DNA from: Oscillospiraceae bacterium
Lineage (GTDB): Bacteria; Bacillota; Clostridia; Oscillospirales; CAG-272
Direction: 5' to 3'
Assembly: GCA_015065135.1 (NCBI GenBank)
Contig: SVQY01000003.1
Coordinates: forward strand, 12,667-76,666
DNA: 64,000 nucleotides
In this document: in pieces, positions 2,946-20,283 of the stretch
Numbering within the stretch: the stretch's first letter is position 1
Layout: each line of letters starts with the position of its first letter
Notes under the pieces: model-generated
Database searches by the model: none
The model's input: only the letters and a program-made list of their open reading frames with translations
Told to the model about the DNA's origin: nothing
Translations under genes and position numbers: made by a program

Positions 2946-2986
2946 CGCATTTTTAATACCAAATGCAGAAAAAGGGAGGATCTGTT

Positions 2987-3988
2987 ATGCAGGAAATGAG
3001 CGTGTTGCAGGATTGCTTTGTGGCGAATATCCCGGGCAAGGATATGACCGCCGCCATTGAGGAAAAGCTGAATACCTACGGCGCCTGCTGCCTTGGCAGC
3101 GGCACCTATCTGGTCAGCGGTGTGAGGATGCCGCCGAATGCCACACTTTCGGGTCTGGGCAGATGCACCCGACTGCTGTTGGATCCTGCGCTGGAGGCAG
3201 GCTCTACCGTGAGCATGGATGCCTTTTGCTGCGTGAAGGATCTGTTTCTTTGCGGTGCGGAGCAAAAGATCGAGCTGCCCGAGGAGCCGGGCGCACGCCA
3301 CGGCATCCTTTATCGGGGCACGGCTACCACCAAGGACTGGATGGGGGAGGGCTTAAAGCTCAATGCCATCATTTCCGGCTGCTGGATCAGCGGCTATAAC
3401 GGCGGTGGCATCACCTGCGTGGATACCGGCTACTATATCCGCGCCTCCCTGACCGCCACCAATTGCCACATCTTCAACTGTGGCACGGGCCTGAACATTT
3501 CGCACTTCAGCGAATACCACGCCTTCACCAATATCCAATGCTGCGAGAACGGCTACGGCTGCATCAACAACGGCGGCAACAACAAGTTCGTCAACTGCGC
3601 CTTTGACGGCAACCGCCTGGGCTTTATGATCGACAACCTGCGGATCAAGTCCCCCAATCATTCCCACGGCTCGGTGGTGGGCTGCAGCTTCAATCACACC
3701 GATAATAACAAGGGCATCGGCATTCTGCTGCTGGGTGCCACCAACGGCTATATCTTTTCCGGCTGCCAGATGTTCTACTCCAGGATCGTGATCGAGGCAT
3801 CCGCCGCCATTGCCTTCAATGCGATCAACTTCGGACGCCTGATGGATATTGAGATAAAGGGCGACGAGCTGATCGCCTTCTCGGATTGTGTGTTTGGAGG
3901 CGTACCTGCGCGCATTGCCGTCAGCAATCCTGCGGCGGTCAAATTCAGCGGCTGCTATACCCGTCACGGCAAAGAGATCAGAATATAA
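2987..3988 (+). CDS. right-handed parallel beta-helix repeat protein (pectate-lyase/GH28-like fold)
   Basis: Periodic beta-helix repeats (NCHIFNCGTGLNISH, NIQCCENGYGCINNGGNNKFVNCAFDGN, VVGCSFNH). Start at ATG 2987, 7 nt after AGGGAGGA. Confidence 0.6.
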   Translation: MQEMSVLQDCFVANIPGKDMTAAIEEKLNTYGACCLGSGTYLVSGVRMPPNATLSGLGRCTRLLLDPALEAGSTVSMDAFCCVKDLFLCGAEQKIELPEEPGARHGILYRGTATTKDWMGEGLKLNAIISGCWISGYNGGGITCVDTGYYIRASLTATNCHIFNCGTGLNISHFSEYHAFTNIQCCENGYGCINNGGNNKFVNCAFDGNRLGFMIDNLRIKSPNHSHGSVVGCSFNHTDNNKGIGILLLGATNGYIFSGCQMFYSRIVIEASAAIAFNAINFGRLMDIEIKGDELIAFSDCVFGGVPARIAVSNPAAVKFSGCYTRHGKEIRI

Positions 3989-3989
3989 A

Positions 3990-4033
3990 AATGCACCCGT
4001 GTAGCGAATTCCGCTGCACGGGTGCCGTTTTTT
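3990..4033. terminator. bidirectional intrinsic terminator
   Basis: GCACCCGTG...CACGGGTGC hairpin with a T-run after and an A-run before, between convergent genes. Confidence 0.7.
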
Positions 4034-4872
4034 CAGTACTTTTTGCTCTGTAATGCGATCTCGGTGTTGTAGATCGCCTGGCGAGAGGCTTTGTCGGCGT
4101 TCAGCACGATATAGGTGTAGATGCTATCCAAAATGGCAAGCTGGGCAATGCGGGAGCTCATGGCGAGGATGGAGTGCTTGGTCTCATCGGACTTGGTGAA
4201 AAGGGCAATGTCGGAGGCATCCACGATGGGGGAGCTGCCGTGATTTGTAATGCAGACGGTGGTGGCACCGCAGATCTTGCAAAGGCGCAGCGCATCCACG
4301 ATATCCTTGGAGGAGCCGGAGTGAGAGATGCCGATGGCCACGCTGCCACGTCGCAGATGGGAGGCGACAATGGCCTGCAGGTGGTTGTCACAGCAGCTTT
4401 GCGCCGAGAGTCCCAGCCGCAGGAATTTGTGCGCCGCATCCTGCGCGATGGCGGCAGAGTTGCCAAGCCCGAAGATAACGATGCGATCCGCTCGCATTAC
4501 CGCTTGCGCCACCTTATTCAAAGCATCGGGATCCAGCACTGTTTCGGTGTTTTTGAGGGAGTCGTAGATGTCGTTGATCCGCTTTTGAAAGATCTCATAG
4601 CAGCCGTCCTCGCGGTTGATCTCACCGCCGATGGAGGAGGCAGCGTTCAGCTCGGCGGCAATGCGCAGCTTCAGCTCCTGATAGCCCTCCAGCCCGAGAC
4701 GTCTGGAGAAGCGGACCACGGTGGCGTTACCGCAGTCGCAATGGGCGGCAAACTCCGAGATGGAAAGGCTGATGATCTCACCGGTGTGATCCAGCAGATA
4801 ATTGGCGATCTTTTTCTCGGCGGGGCCCATCAGGTCAAAGGAAAAGCGGATCTTATGCAGAATGGATTCCAT
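4033..4872 (-). CDS. MurR/RpiR family transcriptional regulator (HTH + SIS domain)
   Basis: N-terminal HTH_6-type motif (EKKIANYLLDH...SISEFAAHCDCGNATVVRFSRRLGLEGYQELK). C-terminal SIS sugar-phosphate binding domain (IVIFGLGNSAAIAQDA...ISHSGSSKD). Confidence 0.85.
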   Translation of the reverse strand: MESILHKIRFSFDLMGPAEKKIANYLLDHTGEIISLSISEFAAHCDCGNATVVRFSRRLGLEGYQELKLRIAAELNAASSIGGEINREDGCYEIFQKRINDIYDSLKNTETVLDPDALNKVAQAVMRADRIVIFGLGNSAAIAQDAAHKFLRLGLSAQSCCDNHLQAIVASHLRRGSVAIGISHSGSSKDIVDALRLCKICGATTVCITNHGSSPIVDASDIALFTKSDETKHSILAMSSRIAQLAILDSIYTYIVLNADKASRQAIYNTEIALQSKKY

Positions 4873-5026
4873 TTTACACCTCTTGATGGAAATTATTTTC
4901 GTTTATTGTAGCATTTTTCAAAAAAAATGTCAATAAGTCGAAAAATATTTTCGCTGTTGGTTGCGCGCGACAAAATAATATGTTACAATCGTCTTGTAAA
5001 AACAAAACGCAAAAGGAGAAATTCGT

Positions 5027-6463
5027 ATGCAGATCAAAATGAATGAATTTTTGTTTTCCATGATCCTGACCGAGCTGGAGGATGCTGTGGGTGTGGAAAA
5101 CTGCTCGGTCCGCCAGATCGACAAGGTCACGCACAGCGTGGATTATTACTGGCTTTCCCGTATGTGGGCGGATCGCGGCTGCCGCATGCCCGAGGCGGAC
5201 TTTATCGTTTGCCCCAAGGATGCCACCGAGGTCTCCAAGGTGGTCAAGATCGCCAACTACTACAAGCTGCCCGTTACCACCTGGGGTGCCGGCGGCGGCA
5301 CGCAGGGCGGAGCCATCCCCGTGTGCGGCGGCATTCTGCTGGATACTAAGCGGATGAACAAGATCTATGAGGTCAACACCGACGGTATGTACATCGAGTG
5401 CGGCACCGGTGCCATCTATAAGCACATCGAATGGGCGGCCAACGAGGTGGGCAAGGCGACCATGCACTATCCCTCCTCCCTGACCTGCTCCACCGTGGGC
5501 GGGTTCCTGGCTCATCGCGGCATCGGCGTTTGCTCCACCAAGTACGGAAAGATCGACGACATGGTGCTGCAGATGGAGGTGGTGCTGCCCAACGGTGACA
5601 TCATCACCACCAGCCCCGCGCCTAAGCACGCCGCAGGCCCCGATCTGAATCAGATCTTCATCGGCTCCGAGGGCACTCTCGGCATCATCACCAAGGCGCA
5701 GATGCGCATTTACGATCAGCCCGAGGAGCGCCGCTTCCGCGGCTTCCTGTTCCAGGATATGCACGGAGCCTTCCAGGCCTCCCGCGAGCTGCTGCAGAAG
5801 TTCAAGCCCTCTGTTATGCGCCTGTATGACGAGGCGGAGACCGCCTCGCTGATCAAGAAGATCGTGGGCGTACAGCGCAAGGGCGCCTTTATGAACGTGG
5901 CCATCGAGGGCTGCAAGGAGCTTGTCGCCGTGGAGGAGAAGATCCTGCTGGACACCTTTGCCAAGTACGGTGCGGAGGATCTGGGCAGCGAGTACGGCGA
6001 AAAGTGGTGGAAGGAGAAGATCACCTTCTTCTATCCCGGTCATATGATGGATATCCCCCAGATGTTCGGCACGATGGATACTATCGCGCCCTATAATAAG
6101 ATCGAGGAGATCTATTGGGCGATGAAGAATGCGGTGGAGAGCAATTTCCCCCAGGCCAAGTTCATCGCGCATTTCTCCCACTGGTACGAGTGGGGCGCCA
6201 TGCTCTACGATCGCTTCATCATTGAGGGCAAGGACGTGCCTCAGAATCCCGTGGAGGCGCTCCGTCTCCATCAGGCGGTCTGGACCTGCGGCGTGCGCGC
6301 CGCACTGGCACACGGCGGTGTGGTCAACGATCACCACGGCGTGGGCATCAAGCTGGGCAGACTGATGAAGGAGCAGTACGGTCCTGCTATGCAGGTGTTT
6401 GAGGGGCTCAAAAAGCAACTGGACCCCAACGGCATTATGAATCCCTTTAAGCTGGGACTTTGA
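5027..6463 (+). CDS. FAD-binding oxidoreductase (GlcD / FAD-linked oxidase family)
   Basis: PCMH-type FAD-binding domain (VVKIANYYKLPVTTWGAGGGTQGGAIP) and C-terminal FAD-oxidase domain ending DPNGIMNPFKLGL. 478 aa. Confidence 0.8.
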   Translation: MQIKMNEFLFSMILTELEDAVGVENCSVRQIDKVTHSVDYYWLSRMWADRGCRMPEADFIVCPKDATEVSKVVKIANYYKLPVTTWGAGGGTQGGAIPVCGGILLDTKRMNKIYEVNTDGMYIECGTGAIYKHIEWAANEVGKATMHYPSSLTCSTVGGFLAHRGIGVCSTKYGKIDDMVLQMEVVLPNGDIITTSPAPKHAAGPDLNQIFIGSEGTLGIITKAQMRIYDQPEERRFRGFLFQDMHGAFQASRELLQKFKPSVMRLYDEAETASLIKKIVGVQRKGAFMNVAIEGCKELVAVEEKILLDTFAKYGAEDLGSEYGEKWWKEKITFFYPGHMMDIPQMFGTMDTIAPYNKIEEIYWAMKNAVESNFPQAKFIAHFSHWYEWGAMLYDRFIIEGKDVPQNPVEALRLHQAVWTCGVRAALAHGGVVNDHHGVGIKLGRLMKEQYGPAMQVFEGLKKQLDPNGIMNPFKLGL

Positions 6464-6480
6464 TCGGGAGGTAGCAAGCA

Positions 6481-7566
6481 ATGATGATTTCTGAAAAAGC
6501 CAAGCAGCACGTGGACTCCTGCCGTTTTTGCTGGATGTGCCACCATATTTGTCCCATCGGTAACGCCACCGGTCACGAGAGAAGCACCCCTCGCGCACGC
6601 GCTTTGGGCATTTCGCTGGTCAATCGCGGTGCCATCGAGCTCTGCGAGATCATGGATAATATTTACGAGTGCGCCGGCTGCGGCGCCTGCGTGCACGACT
6701 GCACCACCGGCTGGGATCCCGTTATGTTCACGGGTGAGGTGAGACTGCAGGCGGCGCTGGAGGATGAGCTGCCCGTGTATATCAATAAGATGGTAGACAA
6801 CTGTCTGGACACCGGCAATGCCTATGGCAAGACTGCTATGTGTGAGACCCTGACCGCTGCCATTGCCGCCCACAGCGCCCCCACCGATACGCTGCTGTAT
6901 CTGGGTGTGGATGCCCGCTACATGGCGTGCAAGCAGGCGCTGAAGGCGATCCGCGTGCTGGAAAAGGCAGGTGTCGCCTTTACCGTGCTGGCGGATGAGC
7001 CCGCCTCCGGTGCGCAGCTGGAGTTTCTGATCGGTGCTGCCGAGGAGACCAAGGAGCAGATGGCCGCCGCCGCTAAGGCGATGGATGCCTACAAGACGGT
7101 GGTGATCTACGATCCTGCCGACAGCAAGGTCATCAAGCAGACCTACAAGGAGTACGGCGTGGCACTTGCCGCCAAGCCCGTGACCTATACCGCGTATCTC
7201 GCGGAGCTTGTAAAGAACGGTGCCCTGCAGGCAGAAAAGAAGAATAAGACCGTAGTTTATCAGGATCCCTTCCAGCTCGCCCGCGATCTGGAGGAGACCG
7301 AGGAGGCCAGAGCGGTGATCGCCGCCTTTGCCGAGCTGCACGAGCTGCATCTGAACCGCGCCGAGACGGTCTGGGCAGGCAACATCCTGATGGCGCAGTA
7401 TTTGCCCGACGTGATGAAGAAGGTGGCGGAGCGCCGCATCTTCAATGCCACCAGCATCGGGGAAAAGGCCATCGTGACCGCTTCTGTTTCCGAGTACGTC
7501 TCCTTGAAGGCGGTGGAGCAGAGCGAGGTGGAGATCCTGTCTCTGGAAGATCTCATTCTGGATTAA
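6481..7566 (+). CDS. (Fe-S)-binding protein, GlcF/HdrD-like partner of the flavoenzyme
   Basis: Two ferredoxin-type Cys clusters (CRFCWMCHHICP; CAGCGACVHDC) followed by a CCG-like domain. Sits immediately downstream of the GlcD-like gene. Confidence 0.7.
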   Translation: MMISEKAKQHVDSCRFCWMCHHICPIGNATGHERSTPRARALGISLVNRGAIELCEIMDNIYECAGCGACVHDCTTGWDPVMFTGEVRLQAALEDELPVYINKMVDNCLDTGNAYGKTAMCETLTAAIAAHSAPTDTLLYLGVDARYMACKQALKAIRVLEKAGVAFTVLADEPASGAQLEFLIGAAEETKEQMAAAAKAMDAYKTVVIYDPADSKVIKQTYKEYGVALAAKPVTYTAYLAELVKNGALQAEKKNKTVVYQDPFQLARDLEETEEARAVIAAFAELHELHLNRAETVWAGNILMAQYLPDVMKKVAERRIFNATSIGEKAIVTASVSEYVSLKAVEQSEVEILSLEDLILD

Positions 7567-7581
7567 AGGGGGAGAAAAACG

Positions 7582-8424
7582 ATGTTGGTCAATTTGCAAA
7601 CGATCATTGGTATGGCAGAGGAGGGAAATTACTGTATTCCTGCCTTTAACGTATACAACACCGAAACGGTCATGGGCATCGTGGAGGCAGCCGAGCAGGA
7701 GAAGGCGCCCGTGATCATCCAGATCTACCCCAGACTTCTCAATGAGGAGGTGGGATTTTACATCTGCCCCGCCGTGGTGGCTGCCGCGCAGCGCGCCTCG
7801 GTGCCGATCTGCTTCCATCTGGATCACGGCCCCTCCGAGTGGGAGGTGACCCGTGCGCTCCGCTGGGGCTGCACCGGCATTATGCTGGATGGCTCTGTGC
7901 ATGATTTTGAAAAGAACGTGGAGATGACAAAGCACGTGGTCGAGACCTGTAAGGCCATCGGCATCGGCGTGGAGGGCGAGATCGGTCACGTGGGCAGCGT
8001 CAACGACGATGCCATGGATGAGTTCACCTCCCCCGAGGAGGCGGCCGCCTTTGTGCAGCAGACCGGCGTGACCTGTCTTGCGGTGCTGGTGGGCAACGCT
8101 CACGGGCATTACAAGAAGCCCCCCAAGCTGGATATCGCGCGCATCAAGGCGATCCGCGAGGCTACCGGCGGCATTCCGCTGGTGCTGCACGGCGGCTCCG
8201 GCATCCCCGATGAGCAGGTCAAGGCAGCCATCGCCGCAGGTATCCGCAAGATGAACATCGGCACCGATGTGTGCTGTGCCTTTGCAGAGGGCACCAAGGA
8301 GACCCTGGAGGATCCCAACCGCAGCATCGCCGTGGATGTATTTATGAAAAAGGCTATTGCCCGCGTGAAGGCGCTGGCGGTGGAGAAGATCGCATTGACC
8401 GGCGCTGCCGGAAGGGCGGAGTGA
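7582..8424 (+). CDS. class II ketose-bisphosphate aldolase family protein (IolJ/FBA/tagatose-bisphosphate aldolase-like)
   Basis: PAFNVYN, VIIQ, HLDHG, VEGEIGHVG, HG.SG motifs of class II aldolases. 280 aa. Confidence 0.85.
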   Translation: MLVNLQTIIGMAEEGNYCIPAFNVYNTETVMGIVEAAEQEKAPVIIQIYPRLLNEEVGFYICPAVVAAAQRASVPICFHLDHGPSEWEVTRALRWGCTGIMLDGSVHDFEKNVEMTKHVVETCKAIGIGVEGEIGHVGSVNDDAMDEFTSPEEAAAFVQQTGVTCLAVLVGNAHGHYKKPPKLDIARIKAIREATGGIPLVLHGGSGIPDEQVKAAIAAGIRKMNIGTDVCCAFAEGTKETLEDPNRSIAVDVFMKKAIARVKALAVEKIALTGAAGRAE

Positions 8425-8425
8425 T

Positions 8426-9337
8426 ATGGGGCGCATCGTTGGCATTGGTGCCTGCGTGATGGATACCCTGATGCAGGTGCCCCGCTATCCTGCGGAGGAT
8501 ACCAAGATGCGGGCACTCTCCTGCCGTCAGGCAGGGGGCGGCCCTGCGGCAACGGGGCTTGTCGCTGCCGCCAAGCTGGGTGAGGACACCGCCTTTATCG
8601 GTGTACTTTCGGAAGACGGGGCAGGGGATTTTCTCTGCCGTGATTTTGAAAAATATGGGGTCGCCACCGACCTCATTGACCGCAAAAACGGATACCGTTC
8701 CTTTACTTCTGTGATCTGGCTGGGGCAGGAGAGCGCCAGCCGCACCTGCGTGTTCGACAAGGGAGATCTGCCCGCGCTTCGGCTGGACGATGCCAAGCGC
8801 CGTGCCATCGCCGAGGCGGATATTCTGATGGTGGACGGCAACGAGCTGGACGCGGCGGTGGAGGCCGCCGCCGTGGCAAGAGAGAGCGGCACCCGCGTGC
8901 TGTACGACTGCGGAGGTCTTTACCCGAACGTGGAGCGGCTGTTGGCGCTGACCGACATCATGATCCCCTCCGAGGAGTTTGCCATGGGCCACACCGGGTG
9001 TGACAGCGCCGAGGCTGCGGCAAAAAAGCTTTACGAGACCTATCACCCCACCGTGGTGGTGGTCACGCAGGGCAAGCGCGGCGGACTTCTGTACGACGGC
9101 GAAAAAACGGTCACTTATCCCATTTACCCCGCCAACGTGGTGGATTCCAACGGCTCGGGCGACGTGTTCCACGGTGCCTTTGCCGCAGGACTTTGCAAGG
9201 GCTACGACTTTGAAAAATGCTGCCACTTTGCCAGCGCGGTTTCCGCCATCAAATGCACCGGCGTGGGCGCCAGAGAAAGCGTACCGGATTTTGAAACGGT
9301 GAAAAATTATATGAAGGAGAATGGCTATGAGCTATAA
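8426..9337 (+). CDS. PfkB-family carbohydrate kinase (ribokinase superfamily; IolC-like position)
   Basis: C-terminal DSNGSGDVFHGAFAAG ATP-binding signature and GG dipeptide region near the N-terminus. 303 aa. Confidence 0.8.
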   Translation: MGRIVGIGACVMDTLMQVPRYPAEDTKMRALSCRQAGGGPAATGLVAAAKLGEDTAFIGVLSEDGAGDFLCRDFEKYGVATDLIDRKNGYRSFTSVIWLGQESASRTCVFDKGDLPALRLDDAKRRAIAEADILMVDGNELDAAVEAAAVARESGTRVLYDCGGLYPNVERLLALTDIMIPSEEFAMGHTGCDSAEAAAKKLYETYHPTVVVVTQGKRGGLLYDGEKTVTYPIYPANVVDSNGSGDVFHGAFAAGLCKGYDFEKCCHFASAVSAIKCTGVGARESVPDFETVKNYMKENGYEL

Positions 9338-10127
9338 TTATAAAAAGGCGTACGTGCCTGCCAAGGGCTACACCCCCATTTGCAAGATCGGCGAATGCTC
9401 CTTGAAAAAGCTGGAGTTCGGCATCATTGAGCTGGACGGCGGAGAGAGCCTCGTTTTTGAGACGGCTGACAAGGAGACCGCCTTCATCATGCTGGAGGGT
9501 CATTGCGATGTGAAGACCGAGGGCTATTTCTTTGAAAACGTGGGAAATCGCAATAACGTGTTCGAAAATCGCCGCGCAGAGAGCTTTTATATGCCCCGCG
9601 ATCAAAAGCTGGAGATCGTTGCAAGGGATCACATCAAGATCGCCGTTTGCGCGACCCCCGTTACGGAAAAGACCGAGCCCCAGGTGCTTCGCGAGGACCA
9701 TGTGGTGCTCAAGCTTCTGGGCGAGCAGCCTTATCAGCGTGAGACCAGCTTTATCATTGACGGCAATTCCAACGCAAAGATCCTGACCATCGGAGAGGCC
9801 TACTGCACCAAGGGCAATTGGGCAGGCTTCCCCCCTCATAAGCACGACGAGGACAATATGCCCACCGAGTGCATTGCCGAGGAGATCTATTACTTCCTCT
9901 TTGACCCTAAGCAGGGCTTTGCGGTGCAATGCCTGTATACGGCCGACGGTAGCCTGGACGAGGCGTATCGCGTGAAGAACGACGAGCTGGTGGAGTTTCC
10001 TTACGGTTACCACACCACCGTTTCCACCCCCGGCTATCAGACCTATTTTCTCTGGCTGATGGCAGGAGATCATCAGGGCTTTAACCGCAGCAGCGACCCG
10101 GCACACGCCTGGATCGAGAAAAAATAA
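9327..10127 (+). CDS. iolB: 5-deoxy-glucuronate isomerase family protein (IolB-like cupin)
   Basis: About 266 aa with GFPPHKHDE....EEIYYF cupin core typical of IolB/KduI-type isomerases. ATG 9327 has better RBS spacing than ATG 9321. Confidence 0.7.
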   Translation: MSYNYKKAYVPAKGYTPICKIGECSLKKLEFGIIELDGGESLVFETADKETAFIMLEGHCDVKTEGYFFENVGNRNNVFENRRAESFYMPRDQKLEIVARDHIKIAVCATPVTEKTEPQVLREDHVVLKLLGEQPYQRETSFIIDGNSNAKILTIGEAYCTKGNWAGFPPHKHDEDNMPTECIAEEIYYFLFDPKQGFAVQCLYTADGSLDEAYRVKNDELVEFPYGYHTTVSTPGYQTYFLWLMAGDHQGFNRSSDPAHAWIEKK

Positions 10128-10138
10128 GGAGGCTCGCC

Positions 10139-10786
10139 ATGCTGAAAAAATTGCAGGAGCTGAACCCCACGCTGCGGCTGTACGACGTGACCGATCCCGC
10201 CTTCGCTCCCTATGGGCGCGTGCTGCAAATGGACGTGAGCGAGATCGCCGCCGAGGCGGAAAAGCTGGAAAAGCCCGCAAACGGGTCGACTTATCTGCCA
10301 TCCGTGCCCGCTTTTGAGGCATTGCAGATCGCGGACGAGATCAAGAATGCGGTGTTTGGCACACTGGATACGCAGGTGGGCTATTGCTACGGCTACAGCG
10401 ACACGCTGAACGCTACCGAATGGCATTTTTCCTCCGAGCTGAATGTTGCCGTCACCCCTTTGGTGCTGATCCTCGGACAGCGCGCGGATATCAAGGCCGG
10501 AAAGCTGGATTCTGCCGATATGAAGGCGTTTTACCTGCCCGCCGGCACTGTGGTGGAGGTCTACGCCACCGCCACCCATTTCTGCCCCTGCCAGGTGCAG
10601 GAGAGCGGCTTTGGCTGCGTGGTCGCATTGCCGAAGGGCACCAATACGCCCCTGGAGGAGCCTACTGCAGATCCTCTTTTGTTCCGTCGGAACAAGTGGC
10701 TGCTTGCCCATGAGCAAAACGAGGGACTGATCGCCCGCGGTGCTGTTGCGGGCATATTTGGTGAGAATTACAAAATCAAATTTTAG
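10139..10786 (+). CDS. DUF4867-like protein (ureidoglycolate-lyase-like cupin fold), function unknown
   Basis: Size (215 aa) and N-terminal pattern recalled from DUF4867 proteins found in clostridial sugar operons. Call from memory only. Confidence 0.45.
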   Translation: MLKKLQELNPTLRLYDVTDPAFAPYGRVLQMDVSEIAAEAEKLEKPANGSTYLPSVPAFEALQIADEIKNAVFGTLDTQVGYCYGYSDTLNATEWHFSSELNVAVTPLVLILGQRADIKAGKLDSADMKAFYLPAGTVVEVYATATHFCPCQVQESGFGCVVALPKGTNTPLEEPTADPLLFRRNKWLLAHEQNEGLIARGAVAGIFGENYKIKF

Positions 10787-10795
10787 GAGTATGCT

Positions 10796-12271
10796 ATGAG
10801 ATATCTCTTGGGCATCGACTTTGGCGGCGGCGCCTCCAAGGCCACACTCCTTGGGGAGAACGGAGCCATCCTTTGTGAGCATACGGTGGAGTATCCCACT
10901 CTCTATCCTGCCCCCGGAGCTTGCGAGCAAGCCCCCGAGGATTGGATCGCCGCTTTGTGCGAAAATACGAAAACGGTATTGAAAAAAGCGAACATTTCGC
11001 CTTTTGATATCGCCGCCGTTGCCGTCGATTCCGCCACGCACACCTCTCTTGTTTGCGATGGGGAATACCGTCCTCTGCGACCTGCTATGCATTGGACGGA
11101 CAGCCGTAGCCGTCGCGAGGCGGATGCGCTGCGGGAGCAATACGGGGAGGAGATCTTTGCAAAGACCTTTCACAAGCCGGATACCATCTGGACGCTCCCT
11201 CAGCTGCTGTGGCTGAAGGGGAACGAGCCGGAGGTGTTTTCCCGCATCGCCCATATCTTTTTTGAAAAGGACTATATCCGCTATTTTCTGACCGACGTGT
11301 ACTGCACCGACTATATTGAGGCGGAGGGCAGTATGCTTTTTGACTGTAACAAAATGGCGTGGGATGAAGCGTTGTGTGGCCTGTGCGGTATTACCGCCGC
11401 TATGCTGCCCCCCATTTGCAAGCCCACCGATGTGATCGGCAAGGTCACCGAAGAGGCAGCCGCTGCCACGGGTCTTGCCGCAGGCACCCCTGTGATCTGC
11501 GGTACCACCGATACGGTGATGGAGGTCTTTGCCTCCGGTGCGGTGAGCCCCGGTGACGTGACCGTCAAGCTGGCCACGGCAGGACGTATCTGCGTGATCA
11601 CCGAGGGGGCACGCCCCGATCGCCATCTGGTGAACTATTCCCATATCATTGAGGGGCTCTGGTATCCCGGTACCGCCACCAAATCGGCGGCGGCGTCCTA
11701 CCGCTGGTATCGCGATACCTTTGGAGGGGATTACCGCGAGCTGGACGGGGGCGCAGCCAAGGTGCCGATCGGCGCTGAGGGACTGTTCTTCCACCCCTAT
11801 CTCAACGGTGAGCTGACTCCCTATGCCGATCCTACTCTTTGCGGCAGCTTTGTTGGCGTGCGCGCCACCCATACGAAAGCGCATTTTACCAGAGCGGTAT
11901 TGGAGGGTGTCTCCCTTTCGCTGCTGGATAACAAGCTGTATCTGGATGGGCTGGGCATTCCTTATAAGGAGACTGCCACCCTGATCGGGGGCGGTGCCAA
12001 GGGACCGCTCTGGCGGCAGATCACCGCCGACGTACTGGGGCTGACGCTGCAGATCACCGAAAGCTCGGATTCCTCCCTCGGCTCCGCCATGCTGGCAGGC
12101 ATTGCCGTGGGTGTGTTTGCCGATGCCGAGGCGGCAGTGGCAAAATGTGTCAAAAAAACCGACACCGTGTACCCGAATTTGGAAAATGCCGCTCGTTACA
12201 AAGCGTTGTTTGACACCTACAAGCGCATTCACGATGCCCTTGCTCCCATCTATCGGGAGAATGCCCGATGA
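10796..12271 (+). CDS. FGGY-family carbohydrate kinase (xylulokinase-like)
   Basis: MRYLLGIDFGGGASKATLL N-terminal phosphate-1 motif and C-terminal GGGAKG..W.QI.ADV FGGY signature. 491 aa. Confidence 0.85.
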   Translation: MRYLLGIDFGGGASKATLLGENGAILCEHTVEYPTLYPAPGACEQAPEDWIAALCENTKTVLKKANISPFDIAAVAVDSATHTSLVCDGEYRPLRPAMHWTDSRSRREADALREQYGEEIFAKTFHKPDTIWTLPQLLWLKGNEPEVFSRIAHIFFEKDYIRYFLTDVYCTDYIEAEGSMLFDCNKMAWDEALCGLCGITAAMLPPICKPTDVIGKVTEEAAAATGLAAGTPVICGTTDTVMEVFASGAVSPGDVTVKLATAGRICVITEGARPDRHLVNYSHIIEGLWYPGTATKSAAASYRWYRDTFGGDYRELDGGAAKVPIGAEGLFFHPYLNGELTPYADPTLCGSFVGVRATHTKAHFTRAVLEGVSLSLLDNKLYLDGLGIPYKETATLIGGGAKGPLWRQITADVLGLTLQITESSDSSLGSAMLAGIAVGVFADAEAAVAKCVKKTDTVYPNLENAARYKALFDTYKRIHDALAPIYRENAR

Positions 12272-13638
12272 GAGTGGTCGTATGTGTCAGGCAGGGTCTT
12301 GACGGAGAGCTTGGCGCCTTTGATGCCGCCGCCTATGAGGCGGCGTTGCGCCTGCCCGACGCAGAGGTCCTCCTGCTTTCCATGGGGCCGCCAAGCGTGG
12401 CGGAATTTCTGCAAAAGCTGACCCGTTTGGGGGCTAAACGTGCCATCCTGTTGTCTGACGGCGCTTTTGCGGGGGCGGACACCCTTGCCACCGCGTATAC
12501 TCTTTCCTTGGCGGTCAAAAGGCTGATGCCCGACCTGGTGCTTTGCGGCAGACAGACGTTGGTAGGGGATACCGCACAGACGGGACCCATGCTTGCCGCC
12601 ATGTGCGGATATAAGCTCGTAACCAACGTGATGGCGCTGACCGTGGGCGACAGGGAGGTCTCCTGCCTGACCCGTGACGAGGGGGAGTGCAGGGCGAGCC
12701 TGCCCGCTTTGCTGACGGTGGAGCGTATCCATACCCTGCGCTTGCCTCGCTTGCGCGCCCCTATGGGAGAATTGGAAATATGGGATGCCGCTGCCCTTGG
12801 CGCGGAGGTTTCTCGCTGCGGTCTTGCAGGCTCCCCCACCCGTGTGATAAAGACCTTTGAAAACGAAGGTGGGAAGCGGCAATGCCGCTTTATCCGCCCT
12901 GACGAGTTGCAGAGTGCCATCGCTGCCGGAATGCGAAAAAACAAAGAAAAAACAGCTTTGCCAAAAAGCGCGGAGCGGCTGCAAAACGTTTGCATCGTGG
13001 GTGAAGCGCCCCGTGCCTTTGCGGAGGCGATCAGCGATGATATTACCCTGCTGCAGCGTGCAGAGGTGACCGCCGAAATGATCCGAAAACGCGACCCGTC
13101 TGCCGTCTTTTTCGGCAGCGACTCCGCTTCTAAGCGATTGGCGGCAGAGCTTGCCGCGACCCTGCAGGCAGGGCTTTGCGCCGATTGCACCGCTGCAGAG
13201 GTGAGCGGTGGGGAGCTGTTCCTTTACCGCCCGGCCCTTTCGGGCAGCATCATAGCAAAGATAAAATGCATCACCCGCCCCGCCATGGCCACGGTGCGCA
13301 CCGCAGAGCAGGAGGCAGGGGATGTGATCCTGACCGCGGGCTTTGGCGTGAAGGACGATATGGAAAGGGTGCGCGCCCTTGCCGCACGGCTGAACGCCAC
13401 CCTTTGCACTACCCGAAAAATGGTGGATCACGACCTGTTGCCCTATGAAATGCAGGTGGGACTCACCGGCAAAACGGTGGCTCCTCCCGTTTATATCGCG
13501 GCGGGCGTTTCGGGCGCGGTGCATCACATTGCGGGGATGCAGCGCGCGGGTACCGTGATCGCGATCAACCGAGATAAAGATGCGCCCATTTTTGACTATG
13601 CCGATTACGGCATCGTTGCAAATATTGAAGAAATTTAA
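12268..13638 (+). CDS. fused electron-transfer-flavoprotein beta-like / alpha-like (FixA-FixB type) protein
   Basis: The N-terminal half resembles EtfB (MRVVVCV...LVLCGRQTLVGDTAQTGPMLAAMCGY...GLAGSPTRV). The C-terminal half resembles the EtfA FAD domain (YIAAGVSGAVHHIAGMQRAGTVIAINRDKDAPIF). ATGA overlap with the upstream kinase stop. Confidence 0.75.
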   Translation: MRVVVCVRQGLDGELGAFDAAAYEAALRLPDAEVLLLSMGPPSVAEFLQKLTRLGAKRAILLSDGAFAGADTLATAYTLSLAVKRLMPDLVLCGRQTLVGDTAQTGPMLAAMCGYKLVTNVMALTVGDREVSCLTRDEGECRASLPALLTVERIHTLRLPRLRAPMGELEIWDAAALGAEVSRCGLAGSPTRVIKTFENEGGKRQCRFIRPDELQSAIAAGMRKNKEKTALPKSAERLQNVCIVGEAPRAFAEAISDDITLLQRAEVTAEMIRKRDPSAVFFGSDSASKRLAAELAATLQAGLCADCTAAEVSGGELFLYRPALSGSIIAKIKCITRPAMATVRTAEQEAGDVILTAGFGVKDDMERVRALAARLNATLCTTRKMVDHDLLPYEMQVGLTGKTVAPPVYIAAGVSGAVHHIAGMQRAGTVIAINRDKDAPIFDYADYGIVANIEEI

Positions 13639-13655
13639 GCAAGGAGGCTTTTGAA

Positions 13656-15065
13656 ATGTTGGATTATAAGATCAAAATGGGTCTGGTGGCTATGAGAAGA
13701 AATACCACTGACCGCCCGAGAGGCACCTTTCTGACTTGGTACTCCGCCGAGCAAAGAGGCAAGCGGTTTGTGGATTACATTGAAAAGAATTTTGCGAGCG
13801 AGCACGTTTCCTTTGTGGATAACAAGGGCATCGGCATTCAGGATCTGGTTTTTGACGATGCCACCGCCGCCGAGGTGGTCGAGCGCTTCCGGGCCGAGAA
13901 GGTGGATGCGGTCATGATCATCAACTGCAACTTCGGCAACGAGGAGGCAGCCGCCGATATTGCCAAGGCGCTGGGTAAGCCCGTGCTGCTCTGGGCGCCC
14001 CTTGACGACGAGTATTATGTGGACGGTATGCGCCCCACCGACTCCCAGTGCGGCATCTTCGGCCTTTCCCGTCAGATGCAGCGTTATCGCATTCCGTTCT
14101 CCCACATTCCCTCCTGCGAGGTGGAGTCCGAGGAGTTCAAGGAAGGCTTCCTGCGCTTTGTGCGCGTTGCCTGCATGGTGAAGAATTTCAAGGGTCTGCG
14201 CATCGGCCAGGTGGGTATCCGTCCCGCCCCCTTCTTCTCGGTCATCAGCAACGAGGGCGAGCTGATGGAGCAGTTCGGCATCCGCATCATTCCCATCAAT
14301 TTTGCCATCATCGAGCAGCGTATGAAGGCAGCCCCTGAGCTGTATGCCGACGAGATCGCGGAGTATGAAAAGTTCTTCAAGGAAAAATTTGAGCTGGACG
14401 ACCTCACGCCCAAGTACATCACCCCTATGGCGACCCTTGCCGCCATGTATAAGCACCTGTTTGAGGAGTACCGTCTGGATGTGATCTCCGCTGAGTGCTG
14501 GACAGCGACCCCCATTATGTTTGACGGCCTCGCCCCCTGTGCCGTATACAGCCTGTTGAATGACCTTGGTTATATGATCTCCTGCGAGAGTGATATTCAC
14601 GCCGCCATGACCATGGTGCTGCTTAAGTGCGCTACGCTCGGTGAGGGCAAGCCCCTGTTTGGCGAGTTCACCGTTCGCCATCCGCAAAAGAGAAACGCAG
14701 AGCTGCTCTGGCACTGCGGCCCGTTCCCACTTTCCCAGATGGCGCCCGACACCAAGGCGAGACTGGTCAATCAACGTGTCTGGCTGCGCGGCAAGGACGG
14801 TACCTACACCGTAGCCCGACTGGACCGCGAGGCCGGCGGACAGTATCTGCTGCTGCCTATGGTCTGCCGCACCACCGAGGGTCCCCAGACCCACGGCACC
14901 TATATCTGGGCGGAGTTTGACGACCTTTGCGCCGTGGAGAACCGCTTGATGGAGGGCCCCTACATCCACCACTTCATCGAGATGGAGGGGGATTATACCA
15001 AGGAGCTTGCTGAGTTCTGTAAGTACTATCCCAACCTGAAGATCGACCGCGCGCTGGAGAAATAA
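13656..15065 (+). CDS. L-fucose/L-arabinose isomerase family protein
   Basis: 469 aa. The overall pattern (INCNFGNEE.., LLWHCGPFP) recalls FucI/AraA-superfamily sugar isomerases. Last gene of the operon. Confidence 0.6.
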   Translation: MLDYKIKMGLVAMRRNTTDRPRGTFLTWYSAEQRGKRFVDYIEKNFASEHVSFVDNKGIGIQDLVFDDATAAEVVERFRAEKVDAVMIINCNFGNEEAAADIAKALGKPVLLWAPLDDEYYVDGMRPTDSQCGIFGLSRQMQRYRIPFSHIPSCEVESEEFKEGFLRFVRVACMVKNFKGLRIGQVGIRPAPFFSVISNEGELMEQFGIRIIPINFAIIEQRMKAAPELYADEIAEYEKFFKEKFELDDLTPKYITPMATLAAMYKHLFEEYRLDVISAECWTATPIMFDGLAPCAVYSLLNDLGYMISCESDIHAAMTMVLLKCATLGEGKPLFGEFTVRHPQKRNAELLWHCGPFPLSQMAPDTKARLVNQRVWLRGKDGTYTVARLDREAGGQYLLLPMVCRTTEGPQTHGTYIWAEFDDLCAVENRLMEGPYIHHFIEMEGDYTKELAEFCKYYPNLKIDRALEK

Positions 15066-15074
15066 AAAACACAG

Positions 15075-15103
15075 AAAAAAGCCCCCGTTCGGGGGCTTTT
15101 TTC
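15075..15103 (+). terminator. intrinsic terminator of the sugar operon
   Basis: GCCCCC-gttc-GGGGGC followed by TTTTTT. Confidence 0.85.
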
Positions 15104-15130
15104 TTTACCGTTTGCAGGGATAATGCCGTT

Positions 15131-16129
15131 TCAGCAGCGGAATGCCGCCTTGATAAAGTTGTCGGTGTGATGCTCCATCATCTCACTGACCTTGTCAAAA
15201 TCCTTCATGTCGTAGATCTTGGTCACGCCCCTGAATTGCCAGATGCCCTTGTCCAGTAGCTCCATGCAGCGGCGGCAAAGCTCTGCTTCGTAATCAATGC
15301 GGCGTTCGTGGCAGTTGATGGTGGTGATGGCCTTGAAATTCCAGAGCTTGTAGTTGATGGTGCGGTCCCCGTCGTTGTGATAGCCGCCGATGCCCAGACG
15401 TCCGTGACCCTGCACCAGGTCGCCCGCCAGGCGCAGACCGTCCTCGGTGCCGCTGAATTCCAGCACGGTGGGAATGCCGCCGTTCAGTATTGTAAAGTTG
15501 TTGCCGTCACGGGTCAGGCTGACCTTGCCCATGGTGTCGAAGGTGAGAAAATATTCGATGGGGATCTCGTGCGGCAGGTAGGTCTCGGTGGCGCCGAACC
15601 GTTTTGCATTCTCCAACGCCTCGGGGCGCTTGTCGATGGCAATGATGTTGCCGTAGCCCATTGCCTTGAAAAGGGCGATGGAGCCAAGCCCCATATAGCC
15701 GCAGCCCACCACGGCGACCGTGTCGCCAAGGGTCTTCACGGGCAGCTTCATGGCGGCGGAAAGCAGGCAGGCGAGGGGCTCGGAAATGGCATCCTCATCC
15801 GAAAGACTGTCGGGCACGTGCGCCATTTTGGCGGGGCTTACCGCAATGTATTCCTTGTAGCCGCCACCGCCGAGACCCGTCACGCGGTCACCGACCTTGA
15901 AGCCCTTCACATTGGCGCCCACCTTGGCAACCACACCCACGGTCTCGTGTCCGATGGTATTGCCGCTGCCGTTTTTGCCCTGTGTCCAAGGATAAAATTC
16001 GGAATGGCACATACCGGTCAGGGTGACCTTGACCAGCATTTGGTCGTCGCTGATCTCGGGGATCGGCACCTCTATGATCTCGGTCTTGCGGGGACCGGTC
16101 AGGATCATCTGCTTCATAGTGTTCTGCAT
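15131..16129 (-). CDS. zinc-dependent alcohol/polyol dehydrogenase (MDR family)
   Basis: GMCHSE, GHE.VG, GDRV zinc-ADH motifs and a GxGxxG Rossmann (VVGCGYMGLG). Start at ATG 16129 behind AAAGGAGG; the longer 498-aa ORF is an upstream extension with no coding character. Confidence 0.85.
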   Translation of the reverse strand: MQNTMKQMILTGPRKTEIIEVPIPEISDDQMLVKVTLTGMCHSEFYPWTQGKNGSGNTIGHETVGVVAKVGANVKGFKVGDRVTGLGGGGYKEYIAVSPAKMAHVPDSLSDEDAISEPLACLLSAAMKLPVKTLGDTVAVVGCGYMGLGSIALFKAMGYGNIIAIDKRPEALENAKRFGATETYLPHEIPIEYFLTFDTMGKVSLTRDGNNFTILNGGIPTVLEFSGTEDGLRLAGDLVQGHGRLGIGGYHNDGDRTINYKLWNFKAITTINCHERRIDYEAELCRRCMELLDKGIWQFRGVTKIYDMKDFDKVSEMMEHHTDNFIKAAFRC

Positions 16130-16257
16130 CACGATACCTCCTTTGCTTACTGCCTTCATTTTATCACGGTCCACGGACGGGGGAATAGCACAAATGCGAG
16201 AAAAAGATGGACAAAAACGACTTTTTGTGATAGAATAAGAAAAAAGGAGGTGGTAGC

Positions 16258-19313: not shown

Positions 19314-19406
19314 TTTGCCATTTTGTAAATTTTTTGGCTTATGCATTGTGCTTTTCGTTGTAATATGATATAATCAAAAAGATATTTGCACGAAAGGAGG
19401 AGGACT

Positions 19407-20189
19407 GTGAGCGTAGGGGTCAAAATATTCGTATCCATTTTAGCAGGGCTTGGCGCCGGCGTCGGTACCGGATTTGCCGGTATGAGTGCCGCAGCGGTGA
19501 TCTCGCCTATGCTGATCATTTTTCTGAAGCTGCCCGCATACGATGCGATCGGCATCGCCTTGGCCAGCGATGTGCTTGCCAGCGCCATCAGTGCCGCCTC
19601 TTACGGAAAAAACAAAAAGATCGATCTGAATAACGGCTCAATCATGATGTTTGTGGTGATGGTCTTTGCCATCGTCGGTAGTTTTTTCGGCCAGCTGATG
19701 CCGGATAACGAGATGGGCGTGATCTCACTTGTGATGATGCTGATCCTCGGTGTCAAGTTCTTGATCAAACCGATCATGGCACCCAAGGCGGCGCTGGAGC
19801 AGCGCAGCCGCGCTAAGATGATCTTTTTCTCGGTGCTTTGCGGCATTCCGGTTGGCTTCGTCTGTGGCTTTGTCGGCGCGGGAGGCGGTATGATGATGCT
19901 TCTGGTGCTGACCGTGTTCCTCGGATACGGTCTGAAAACGGCTGTTGGCACCAGCGTGTTCATCATGACCTTTACAGCTCTGACCGGAGCGCTGACCCAC
20001 TTCTGGCGTTCCACCAATGAGCCCGACTGGGCTTGTCTCATCACCTGTGTGGTCTCCACATTGGCCTTTGCCTGGCTCTCCTCGCTGATCGCCAACCGCT
20101 CTGATCCCAAGCTGCTCAACCGTATCGTCGGTGTGGTGCTGCTGATCATCGGTGCGACGATGACGGTCTTTAAATTGGTCATTGGTTGA
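19407..20189 (+). CDS. TauE/SafE (TSUP) family anion exporter
   Basis: Polytopic membrane protein with duplicated halves, each carrying the G.G.G..G.GGG-type motif (GLGAGVGTGFAGMS; GFVGAGGGMMM). GTG 19407 follows AGGAGGAGG. Confidence 0.7.
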   Translation: MSVGVKIFVSILAGLGAGVGTGFAGMSAAAVISPMLIIFLKLPAYDAIGIALASDVLASAISAASYGKNKKIDLNNGSIMMFVVMVFAIVGSFFGQLMPDNEMGVISLVMMLILGVKFLIKPIMAPKAALEQRSRAKMIFFSVLCGIPVGFVCGFVGAGGGMMMLLVLTVFLGYGLKTAVGTSVFIMTFTALTGALTHFWRSTNEPDWACLITCVVSTLAFAWLSSLIANRSDPKLLNRIVGVVLLIIGATMTVFKLVIG

Positions 20190-20226: not shown

Positions 20227-20283
20227 TTGACGAAAGCGGCGGAATGTGATATACTTAACCTATCAAGACAATGGAGGCACAGT

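Follow-up and report, generated by a model that had tools for sequence, protein, structure and literature searches.

A conserved operon of gut Oscillospirales that joins an ADPS/YgcU-type flavoenzyme and a single-chain Etf to IolB-, PfkB- and aldolase-family genes, possibly for the breakdown of a polyol or rare sugar

The operon described here sets side by side the three enzyme families of Bacillus subtilis IolB, IolC and IolJ (a KduI/IolB cupin, a PfkB kinase and a PF01116 aldolase) and joins them to counterparts of proteins encoded by the E. coli ygc cluster (ygcN-O-P-Q-R-S-U-W, yqcE, ygcE), namely YgcU, which resembles alkyl-dihydroxyacetonephosphate synthase (ADPS), the FGGY kinase YgcE and the Etf YgcQ/YgcR. 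It lies in a 64,000-nt window (the whole stretch of DNA that we analysed) from an Oscillospiraceae bacterium (GCA_015065135.1, contig SVQY01000003.1, positions 12,667-76,666; all coordinates below are window positions) and comprises nine plus-strand genes (5027-15065) with a divergent minus-strand RpiR/SIS gene (4033-4872). The nine encode the flavoenzyme, an iron-sulphur (Fe-S) subunit, the aldolase, the PfkB kinase, the IolB-like cupin, a DUF4867 cupin, the FGGY kinase, a fused Etf and a FucI-like isomerase. Literature searches, full text included, returned no characterised pathway matching the operon and no paper describing it, in keeping with the first-pass annotation made from the sequence alone, which did not recognise a characterised route; the enzyme set matches no described pathway. 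Our tentative reading is that the operon is dedicated to the catabolism of a polyol or rare sugar, with a kinase acting before the flavoenzyme.

Each of the closest described systems differs from this locus in a distinct way. The B. subtilis trio and the operon trio probably share their chemistry (conversion of an aldehyde to a ketone, phosphorylation beside it and release of dihydroxyacetone phosphate, DHAP), but the genome carrying the operon is without IolG, IolE, IolD and IolA, and the operon trio is locked to the FGGY kinase and the flavoenzyme, Fe-S and Etf genes. The ygc cluster, a literature search for which found no paper naming two of its genes and which is uncharacterised, has separate EtfA and EtfB proteins and FixC/FixX-like YgcN/O, has no gene for IolB, a PfkB kinase, an aldolase, a FucI-like protein or DUF4867, and has a kinase only 24% identical to the operon FGGY kinase. 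GlpK with GlpABC and EryA with EryB likewise pair an FGGY kinase with a flavin dehydrogenase and offer a model for the order of steps, and the operon Fe-S subunit is weakly GlpC-like; however, the operon flavoenzyme is of the VAO/ADPS rather than the DAO/GlpA type, its electrons would pass to Etf rather than to quinone, and the operon FGGY kinase is XylB-like (142 vs. 590 bits on the GlpK model). Acetobacterium woodii LctBCD combines a VAO-family flavoenzyme with Etf in an anaerobe, and LctD is a detectable relative (98.5 bits), but it is a far weaker match than ADPS, the operon flavoenzyme lacks the hydroxy-acid Glu, and the operon has an extra Fe-S subunit and a shortened, single-chain Etf.

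Two further systems resemble the operon in its kinase and aldolase. The sulfoglycolytic Embden-Meyerhof-Parnas pathways (sulfo-EMP and sulfo-EMP2) also use an isomerase, a 1-kinase and an aldolase on a ketose with an anionic far end; the operon PfkB kinase is closest to YihV, a DUF4867 gene is present, and the aldolase lacks the trans-subunit Arg, as does SqiA, but the operon kinase keeps one of the three residues of the sulfonate triad and the isomerase falls far under the SftI cut-off. The operon aldolase is 37-42% identical to E. coli YdjI, and both are without the Arg of the 'DPR' motif; the kinase, by contrast, is 25% identical to YdjH, and ydj uses Zn-dependent dehydrogenases, not a flavoenzyme with Etf.

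Layout and conservation of the operon

Gene calls were taken from the list of open-reading frames together with Pfam and NCBIfam scans, with the curated NCBIfam scores serving as equivalog cut-offs (Table 1). Successive operon genes are spaced by 17, 15, 1, -17, 11, 9, -4 and 17 nt, each has an ATG start and a GGAG-like ribosome-binding site, and the bidirectional terminator at 15073-15104 is common to the operon end and to a convergent Zn-dependent alcohol dehydrogenase (Zn-ADH) gene, so the tight nine-gene operon with a divergent RpiR/SIS regulator and a strong terminator stands as first annotated. On the minus strand a promoter-like site, TTGACA-17-TACAAT, is found at 4933-4905.

With the IolB-like protein as anchor, tblastn (E <= 1e-3) gave relatives in 226 scanned genome stretches, the 80 best of which were used for locus comparison; gene presence was counted in the 38 related loci with at least 6.5 kb either side of the anchor, and accessory genes in about 85 related loci. 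The 80 best IolB loci are 81-88% identical and all come from metagenome-assembled genomes of Oscillospirales (with labels such as Acutalibacteraceae, Oscillospiraceae and Faecousia) from the guts of humans, ruminants and other animals. The flavoenzyme, Fe-S protein, Etf, FGGY kinase and IolB are each present in all 38 loci and the aldolase and PfkB kinase each in 37, whilst the FucI-like gene occurs in 32, DUF4867 in 22 and RpiR in 18. The core is thus seven genes (flavoenzyme, Fe-S protein, fused Etf, FGGY kinase, IolB, PfkB kinase and aldolase), with the FucI-like and DUF4867 genes accessory. That the gene set recurs in related loci confirms one conserved operon, and the earlier proposal of an Etf-linked oxidation step within it is supported. 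Gene order is less constant: the FucI-like gene is usually the first of the operon in relatives, its last place in the window being rare, and the same gene set in another order was found in metagenome contigs whose FucI-like protein is only 43-48% identical.

Median identity across the 38 loci is highest for the flavoenzyme (92%), followed by IolB (84%), with the other genes at 57-76%; DUF4867 (57%) and Etf (59%) are the least conserved of the set. Across families the flavoenzyme is 83-96% identical. An even sample of the order yielded its orthologues in no more than 4 of 150 genomes and 2 of 30 families, a patchy occurrence that gives the operon the look of an accessory trait. In one animal-gut metatranscriptome assembly, parts of the flavoenzyme, PfkB, IolB, FGGY and FucI-like genes are covered by contigs of 221-382 nt (about 86-98% alike); these come from relatives, DNA carry-over is possible, and they give a weak hint of transcription.

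Table 1. Features of the operon and its boundaries in the window, with the principal support for each assignment
Feature	Position	Strand	Support
RpiR/MurR-family regulator (HTH_6 + SIS)	4033..4872	-	Pfam HTH_6 70.7 bits, SIS 74.6 bits
ADPS/YgcU-type FAD-dependent dehydrogenase	5027..6463	+	Pfam PF01565 + PF02913 (FAD_binding_4/FAD-oxidase_C)
Fe-S subunit, N-terminal 2x[4Fe-4S] and CCG-like C-terminal half	6481..7566	+	weak NCBIfam TfrB, LdhH, GlpC matches
Class II metal-dependent ketose-phosphate aldolase, YdjI/KbaY-like	7582..8424	+	PF01116 293 bits
PfkB-family sugar kinase, YihV-like	8426..9337	+	PfkB 157.8 bits
IolB-family cupin (aldose-ketose isomerase)	9321..10127	+	TIGR04378 220.7 bits, cut-off 205
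DUF4867 cupin metalloprotein (SftX/SqvB family), accessory	10139..10786	+	PF16161 228 bits
FGGY kinase, xylulokinase-like paralogue	10796..12271	+	TIGR01312 XylB 375.4 bits, cut-off 380.25
Single-chain EtfB-EtfA fusion, 456 aa	12268..13638	+	PF01012 (two stretches) + PF00766 residues 352-425
AraA/FucI-fold aldose-ketose isomerase, accessory	13656..15065	+	AlphaFold/Foldseek + family PF02952
Bidirectional intrinsic terminator	15073..15104		14-pair stem, A-runs and T-runs on both sides

Further genes recur in the operon or beside it among the roughly 85 loci: aldose 1-epimerase (28 loci), an AraC-type regulator upstream in place of RpiR (24), an AEC-family transporter (18), NagA with a NagB-like gene inside the operon (8), a PMI-like cupin (5) and a GalA-like GH2 (3). 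The NagA in the operon scores above its cut-off (233.7 vs. 225.65 bits; for example L014 10299-12340 and L075 1-2033), and the eight loci with NagA and a divergent NagB/AgaI-like deaminase are mostly without DUF4867; their place inside the operon suggests that the pathway can also be fed by an N-acetyl amino sugar. In one relative the GalA-like GH2 (695 bits, cut-off 900) sits inside the operon between the PfkB and IolB genes, and in two further relatives it adjoins the operon (GH2 examples are L074 1981-4305 and L058 227-2563), a possible hint of a substrate released from a beta-glycoside.

A variant cluster was found in five loci (L005, L028, L035, L055 and L075; for example L075 2048-10272), in which IolB is 84-88% identical to the window copy whilst the flavoenzyme (~60%), Fe-S protein (~34%), Etf (~36%) and FGGY kinase (~50%) have diverged and the FucI-like and DUF4867 genes are missing. 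IolB alone is strongly constrained there. The variant cluster is followed immediately by Ldh_2 and LarA genes (L005 6590-9003; also L035). In the window, LarA is encoded 5 kb downstream of the operon (20227-21561), after a TauE/SafE-family exporter gene (19386-20189); at 616 bits, the LarA protein lies above the equivalog cut-off for nickel-dependent lactate racemase (460 bits). The recurrence of LarA and Ldh_2 after the variant cluster and of LarA near the window operon makes a functional link possible.

Enzyme families and residue patterns

The flavoenzyme had been labelled GlcD-like, which we could not uphold. Its best PDB match is ADPS (2UUU, 142 bits), followed by D-lactate dehydrogenase (119 bits), glycolate oxidase (103 bits) and LctD; on the GlcD model TIGR00387 it reaches 185.8 bits against a cut-off of 567.9; and E. 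coli YgcU, whose cluster is among its nearest protein atlas neighbours, shares 29% identity with it over the full length (E 1e-55). ADPS is mutated in PDB entries 4BC7 (R to H) and 4BCA (Y to F) at positions that correspond to R265 and Y394 of the window protein; of the three His in the ADPS HHH loop, the second and third correspond to H436/H437, and the first is replaced by Asp. R265, Y394 and H436/H437 are all invariant in six orthologues. The corresponding ADPS active-site residues are R419, Y578 and H616/H617. In D-2-hydroxyacid dehydrogenases the Glu of the 'GEHG' motif is a metal ligand; the G-E-H-G of mouse LDHD aligns with D435-H436-H437-G of the window protein, in which this Glu is lost. 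Judged by its sequence, the flavoenzyme is of the alkyl-DHAP-synthase/YgcU type, an assignment that does not imply ADPS activity.

In the Fe-S protein the motifs C14xxC17xxC20xxxC24P and C64xxC67xxC70xxxC74 are invariant among the six orthologues, and in the same six no Cys after residue 74 is invariant, so that CCG cysteines of the GlcF/GlpC/HdrD type were not found. Of the Fe-S/CCG partner first annotated, the two 4Fe-4S motifs therefore hold, whereas the CCG-like half has no conserved Cys; this Cys-free half may be a structural or substrate-binding remnant and not a cluster-binding domain. A model of the flavoenzyme in complex with the Fe-S protein, built from shallow, 6-row alignments, scored 0.73, compared with 0.00 for the best of three controls, a mark that was reached by 58 of 80 solved complexes and by 2 of 110 mismatched pairs. 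Model runs agree in at least 83% of contacts, with partner predicted local distance difference test (pLDDT) values of at least 91, and Fe-S residues 13-78 dock on the FAD domain with the first 4Fe-4S motif at the interface. The model supports binding of the two proteins, although its pass may reflect likeness to solved structures because related GlcD-type complexes are in the PDB. The Etf fusion runs from an EtfB-like to an EtfA-like part with the middle shortened, the N-terminal part being 30% identical to E. coli YgcR and the C-terminal part 33% to YgcQ.

The PfkB kinase best matches sulfofructose kinase YihV in the PDB (7AG6, 133.7 bits; ribokinase 89 bits), and stays under the cut-offs of the IolC model TIGR04382 (IolC_N, 110.1 vs. 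300 bits) and of NCBIfam ribokinase (142 vs. 300 bits). The sulfonate recognition triad of YihV is K27-N109-R138 (PMC8006165); in the HMMER alignment to 7AG6, K27 is kept in the window kinase whilst N109 is replaced by V109 and R138 by N139. For the aldolase the nearest E. coli protein is YdjI (42% identity in an HMMER-scored search, 37% by tblastn), then KbaY (36%) and GatY (33%), and its metal- and DHAP-binding core is intact. In fructose-bisphosphate (FBP) aldolases the trans-subunit Arg of the 'DPR' motif binds the distal 6-phosphate (R280 in Helicobacter pylori), and SqiA has Ala in its place (PMC10665668). In a MAFFT alignment that also included the genome's three other class II aldolases, KbaY, GatY and the probable glycolytic FBP aldolase of this genome (contig C11) all have this Arg, whilst the operon aldolase and six orthologues have A-[VI]-D instead of 'DPR', together with a conserved Q-x-Y49-[PS]-R51-L loop. 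From these residues the kinase/aldolase pair looks suited to a ketose 1-phosphate with something other than the standard hexose 6-phosphate at its far end, as is also the case for IolC/IolJ, YihV/SqiA and YdjH/YdjI. IolB, the sole KduI/IolB gene in the genome, exceeds its equivalog cut-off (Table 1) and matches the IolB-like protein of PDB 2QJV at 130 bits. The annotated IolB/IolC/IolJ-like trio accordingly survives as three adjacent families with IolB above the cut-off, but its kinase is nearer to YihV than to IolC.

The window FucI-like protein has no Pfam match of its own; PF02952 is matched by 32 of 38 representatives of its family, and its AlphaFold model (pLDDT 95.8) superposes in Foldseek on L-arabinose isomerase (TM 0.83) and L-fucose isomerase (TM 0.76), so that the family matches and the fold vindicate the 'FucI-like' label. 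E311, D313, H353, H438 and H439 are invariant or nearly so, and the only NCBIfam match is SftI (NF048012), at 101 bits against a cut-off of 700. Homologues at 34-40% identity sit in unrelated contexts, such as a transketolase with a LacI regulator, and neither these distant homologues nor their generic cluster names gave a clue to the substrate. The DUF4867 protein scores 175 bits to PDB 9GYY, a DUF4867 (SftX/SqvB) structure with four metal ligands (PMC11968277), and its E94, H96, E100 and H147 align with the ligands E97, H99, E103 and H150. In the sequence-similarity network of DUF4867, the largest cluster is one without an assigned function whose members neighbour FucI-family and FGGY genes (JBC 2025, PMC11968277). 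The operon FGGY kinase has E. coli XylB as its best PDB match (214 bits).

A validated parallel to this second trio exists. The FucI-family protein CAC2610 (XylA-II) of Clostridium acetobutylicum has been validated experimentally as a xylose isomerase; its gene forms an operon with CAC2611 and adjoins xylB, CAC2612 (PMC2873477, Gu et al. 2010). In C. saccharobutylicum, xylB, annotated DUF4867 and 'fucose isomerase' genes share one operon. CAC2611 is presumably a DUF4867 protein, although that paper does not call it one. The window operon likewise clusters a FucI-family isomerase with a XylB-type FGGY kinase, the resemblance to CAC2610 lying in the fold, the PF02952 family and the neighbouring DUF4867 and FGGY genes. 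The first-pass annotation had counted the FucI-like, DUF4867 and FGGY genes towards an unrecognised combination, a view that needs amending since the three mirror XylA-II/CAC2611/XylB (PMC2873477) and the FucI-like and DUF4867 genes are dispensable in relatives. Unlike that system, the window genome has a canonical XylA (684 bits) adjoining a canonical XylB (568 bits) on another contig (C52), to which the operon FGGY kinase is 33% identical, which makes D-xylose an unlikely substrate; plain xylose was rejected for this reason. By analogy, the FucI-like, DUF4867 and FGGY proteins would form a XylA-II-like feeder for some other aldose, dispensable in relatives.

Proposed pathway and alternatives

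In what follows, the substrate, the order of steps and the direction of electron flow are predictions that build on observed gene content and conservation, on assignments to families and subfamilies, and on residue patterns. In the pathway that we tentatively favour, the xylulokinase-like FGGY kinase would phosphorylate a terminal hydroxyl of the substrate, and the ADPS/YgcU-type flavoenzyme would oxidise the phosphorylated intermediate, passing electrons to the docked 2x[4Fe-4S] subunit and on to the single-chain Etf. The IolB-type cupin would then move the new carbonyl (aldose to ketose), the YihV/IolC-like PfkB kinase would phosphorylate C1 adjoining the keto group, and the YdjI/IolJ-like class II aldolase would yield DHAP and a short anionic aldehyde. 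As an optional feeder, the FucI-like and DUF4867 proteins, with aldose 1-epimerase in relatives, may turn a free aldose into a ketose for the FGGY kinase, and in some relatives NagA and the NagB-like gene may feed in an N-acetyl amino sugar.

The order of kinase before flavoenzyme is suggested by the linkage of an FGGY kinase, an ADPS/YgcU flavoenzyme and Etf in the full cluster, the variant cluster and E. coli ygc, and by the fact that ADPS binds a ketone phosphate, as would fit the order in GlpK/GlpD and EryA/EryB. The feeder genes (FucI-like with FGGY, NagA with NagB-like) point to a ketose omega-phosphate as the common intermediate. In 5-deoxyglucuronate, the known substrate of IolB, COO- takes the place that OPO3 has in an aldopentose 5-phosphate, the carbon skeletons being the same; the substrate of IolC and the products of IolJ correspond in like manner. 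A sugar-phosphate effector would suit the RpiR/SIS regulator.

Several observations weigh against this pathway. The identity of the substrate is a guess, and the window operon contains no transporter gene. If the far end is a phosphate, the conserved Y49-P-R51 loop of the aldolase must substitute for the missing 'DPR' Arg, and the score of IolB above the IolB equivalog cut-off favours a carboxylate over a phosphate substrate. The enzymes that oxidise known polyol phosphates are NAD-dependent and yield ketoses in one step, in which case IolB would be unneeded. Acids are also indicated by the AEC-family transporter, of organic anion type, in the operon at 18 loci and by the Ldh_2 and LarA genes after the variant cluster, and the low identity of the FGGY kinase to YgcE makes the ygc parallel one of architecture, not orthology.

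The signs of an acid are taken up by an Iol-like lower route, the leading alternative though unlikely in our estimate, in which a uronate or deoxy-uronate would be isomerised by IolB, phosphorylated beside the keto group by the PfkB kinase and cleaved to DHAP and a C3 aldehyde-acid, as 5-deoxyglucuronate is by IolB/IolC/IolJ, whilst the flavoenzyme, Fe-S protein and Etf would oxidise a hydroxy-acid by-product or precursor and the FucI-like, DUF4867 and FGGY proteins would handle a co-released neutral sugar. It would account for the IolB score on TIGR04378 and for the AEC-type transporter, as well as for Ldh_2 and LarA beside the variant cluster and LarA downstream in the window. The aldolase, nearest YdjI and without the distal-phosphate Arg, fits too, since YdjI, in the 2019 work of Huddleston et al., reportedly prefers carboxylate-terminated ketose 1-phosphates, and the nearest match of the PfkB kinase is an enzyme that acts on an anionic-tailed ketose. 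Such a route, however, would leave the core FGGY kinase without a necessary role and would call on an ADPS/YgcU-like flavoenzyme that lacks the D-2-hydroxyacid motif Glu; moreover, canonical UxaC for hexuronates is already present in the genome (for which glucuronate itself was rejected as substrate), no enzyme making 5-deoxyglucuronate was found in the genome, and no aldehyde dehydrogenase or reductase for the C3 acid is conserved in related loci. Myo-inositol or an isomer as the source of 5-deoxyglucuronate, with the flavoenzyme, Etf and other genes replacing IolG, IolE and IolD in an oxygen-independent route, is very improbable. IolB above its cut-off, a trio in Iol order, and 27 Gfo/Idh/MocA and 15 AP_endonuc_2 matches in the genome would suit it, but the best whole-genome matches in this 84% complete assembly stay far under the cut-offs for IolD (208.7 vs. 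715 bits), IolE (49.8 vs. 290), IolG (164 vs. 355) and IolA (TIGR01722, 115.2 vs. 448.5), which argues against inositol catabolism and extends the noted absence of IolG, IolE and IolD from the window to the whole assembly. The kinase also falls short on IolC_N, the cluster holds no candidate for a ring-opening hydrolase, and the aldose 1-epimerase, FucI-like and NagA/NagB accessories indicate open-chain or pyranose sugars.

The genes might also form no single pathway, being instead a co-regulated bundle of a pentose module of XylA-II type, a tagatose/ketose-bisphosphate-type module and a lactate/glycolate dehydrogenase-Etf module. Although each trio resembles a known, self-standing module, the FucI-like and DUF4867 genes are dispensable and distant FucI-like homologues occur in unrelated contexts, we consider a bundle doubtful: each of the seven core genes is kept in 37-38 of the 38 loci, and the set holds together despite reshuffling and anchor identity down to 43%, the genome has its separate canonical XylA and XylB, the operon FGGY kinase being only 33% identical to the latter, the aldolase is without the Arg expected for a bisphosphate substrate, and the active-site motifs of the flavoenzyme are not LctD- or GlcD-like. 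Much less probable again is a hybrid sulfo-EMP route for sulfoquinovose (SQ), in which the FucI-like protein would serve as SQ isomerase, DUF4867 as SftX, the PfkB kinase as sulfofructose kinase and the aldolase as SqiA, and the flavoenzyme would oxidise the C3 sulfonate. YihV as best PDB match of the kinase, SftI as the only NCBIfam match of the FucI-like protein, a DUF4867 protein of the SftX/SqvB family with its metal ligands kept (PMC11968277), SqiA-type aldolases that also lack the trans Arg (PMC10665668) and the TauE/SafE exporter gene at 19386-20189 all point that way, yet the YihV triad is reduced to K27 (PMC8006165), the SftI score is far too low, DUF4867 and the FucI-like protein are the dispensable genes, and the IolB, FGGY and flavoenzyme core is needed by no sulfoglycolytic route. 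Nor is a sulfoquinovosidase, a sulfolactaldehyde reductase or dehydrogenase, or a sulfonate exporter conserved in the 85 related loci; the sulfoquinovosidase and sulfolactaldehyde enzymes are absent from the recurrent accessory genes and the window operon, the rest of the genome not having been searched for YihQ.

Galactose or tagatose was suggested by the GalA-like GH2 in one locus and the KbaY likeness of the aldolase, but was not supported: the genome has a GalT, just under its cut-off (634.5 vs. 650.15 bits), the aldolase is without the distal-phosphate Arg, and the core flavoenzyme and IolB would be left without a role. Instead of a plain alcohol oxidation, the flavoenzyme might perform ADPS-like covalent flavin chemistry on a ketose phosphate, with the Fe-S protein and mini-Etf as redox partners, for instance to cleave or exchange a C-O substituent adjoining the keto group; we rate this as improbable.

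Genomic surroundings and significance

The window genome comprises 2.37 Mb in 88 contigs and is 84% complete. The Zn-ADH gene convergent with the operon (15131-16180, minus strand) has weak threonine, galactitol-1-phosphate and idonate dehydrogenase matches and is not conserved next to the operon, with no tblastn match in the 80 genome loci (L003-L082). Upstream lies an open-reading frame of 341 aa (2963-3988) without a Pfam or NCBIfam match, followed by a strong terminator at 3993-4025, and it too is not conserved beside the operon in relatives. Across the genome there are 27 IolG-model (Gfo/Idh/MocA) matches, 15 IolE-model (AP_endonuc_2) matches and four class II aldolase paralogues; the organism appears specialised on many unusual sugars.

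The restriction of flavoenzyme orthologues to so few of the sampled genomes and families of the order makes the operon look like a niche-defining nutrient route, and the ADPS/YgcU flavoenzyme subfamily is not known to have a part in the sugar metabolism of bacteria. Once the substrate is identified, functions could be given to DUF4867-linked isomerase/kinase modules, an IolB subfamily and the single-chain Etf, and the E. coli ygc genes would probably be explained. If the ADPS-like covalent chemistry proved true, it would represent a new kind of anaerobic sugar-processing reaction and give a function to the orphan E. coli ygc cluster. The substrate would be a dietary or host-derived compound used by abundant uncultured gut bacteria, and knowing it could help to culture them.

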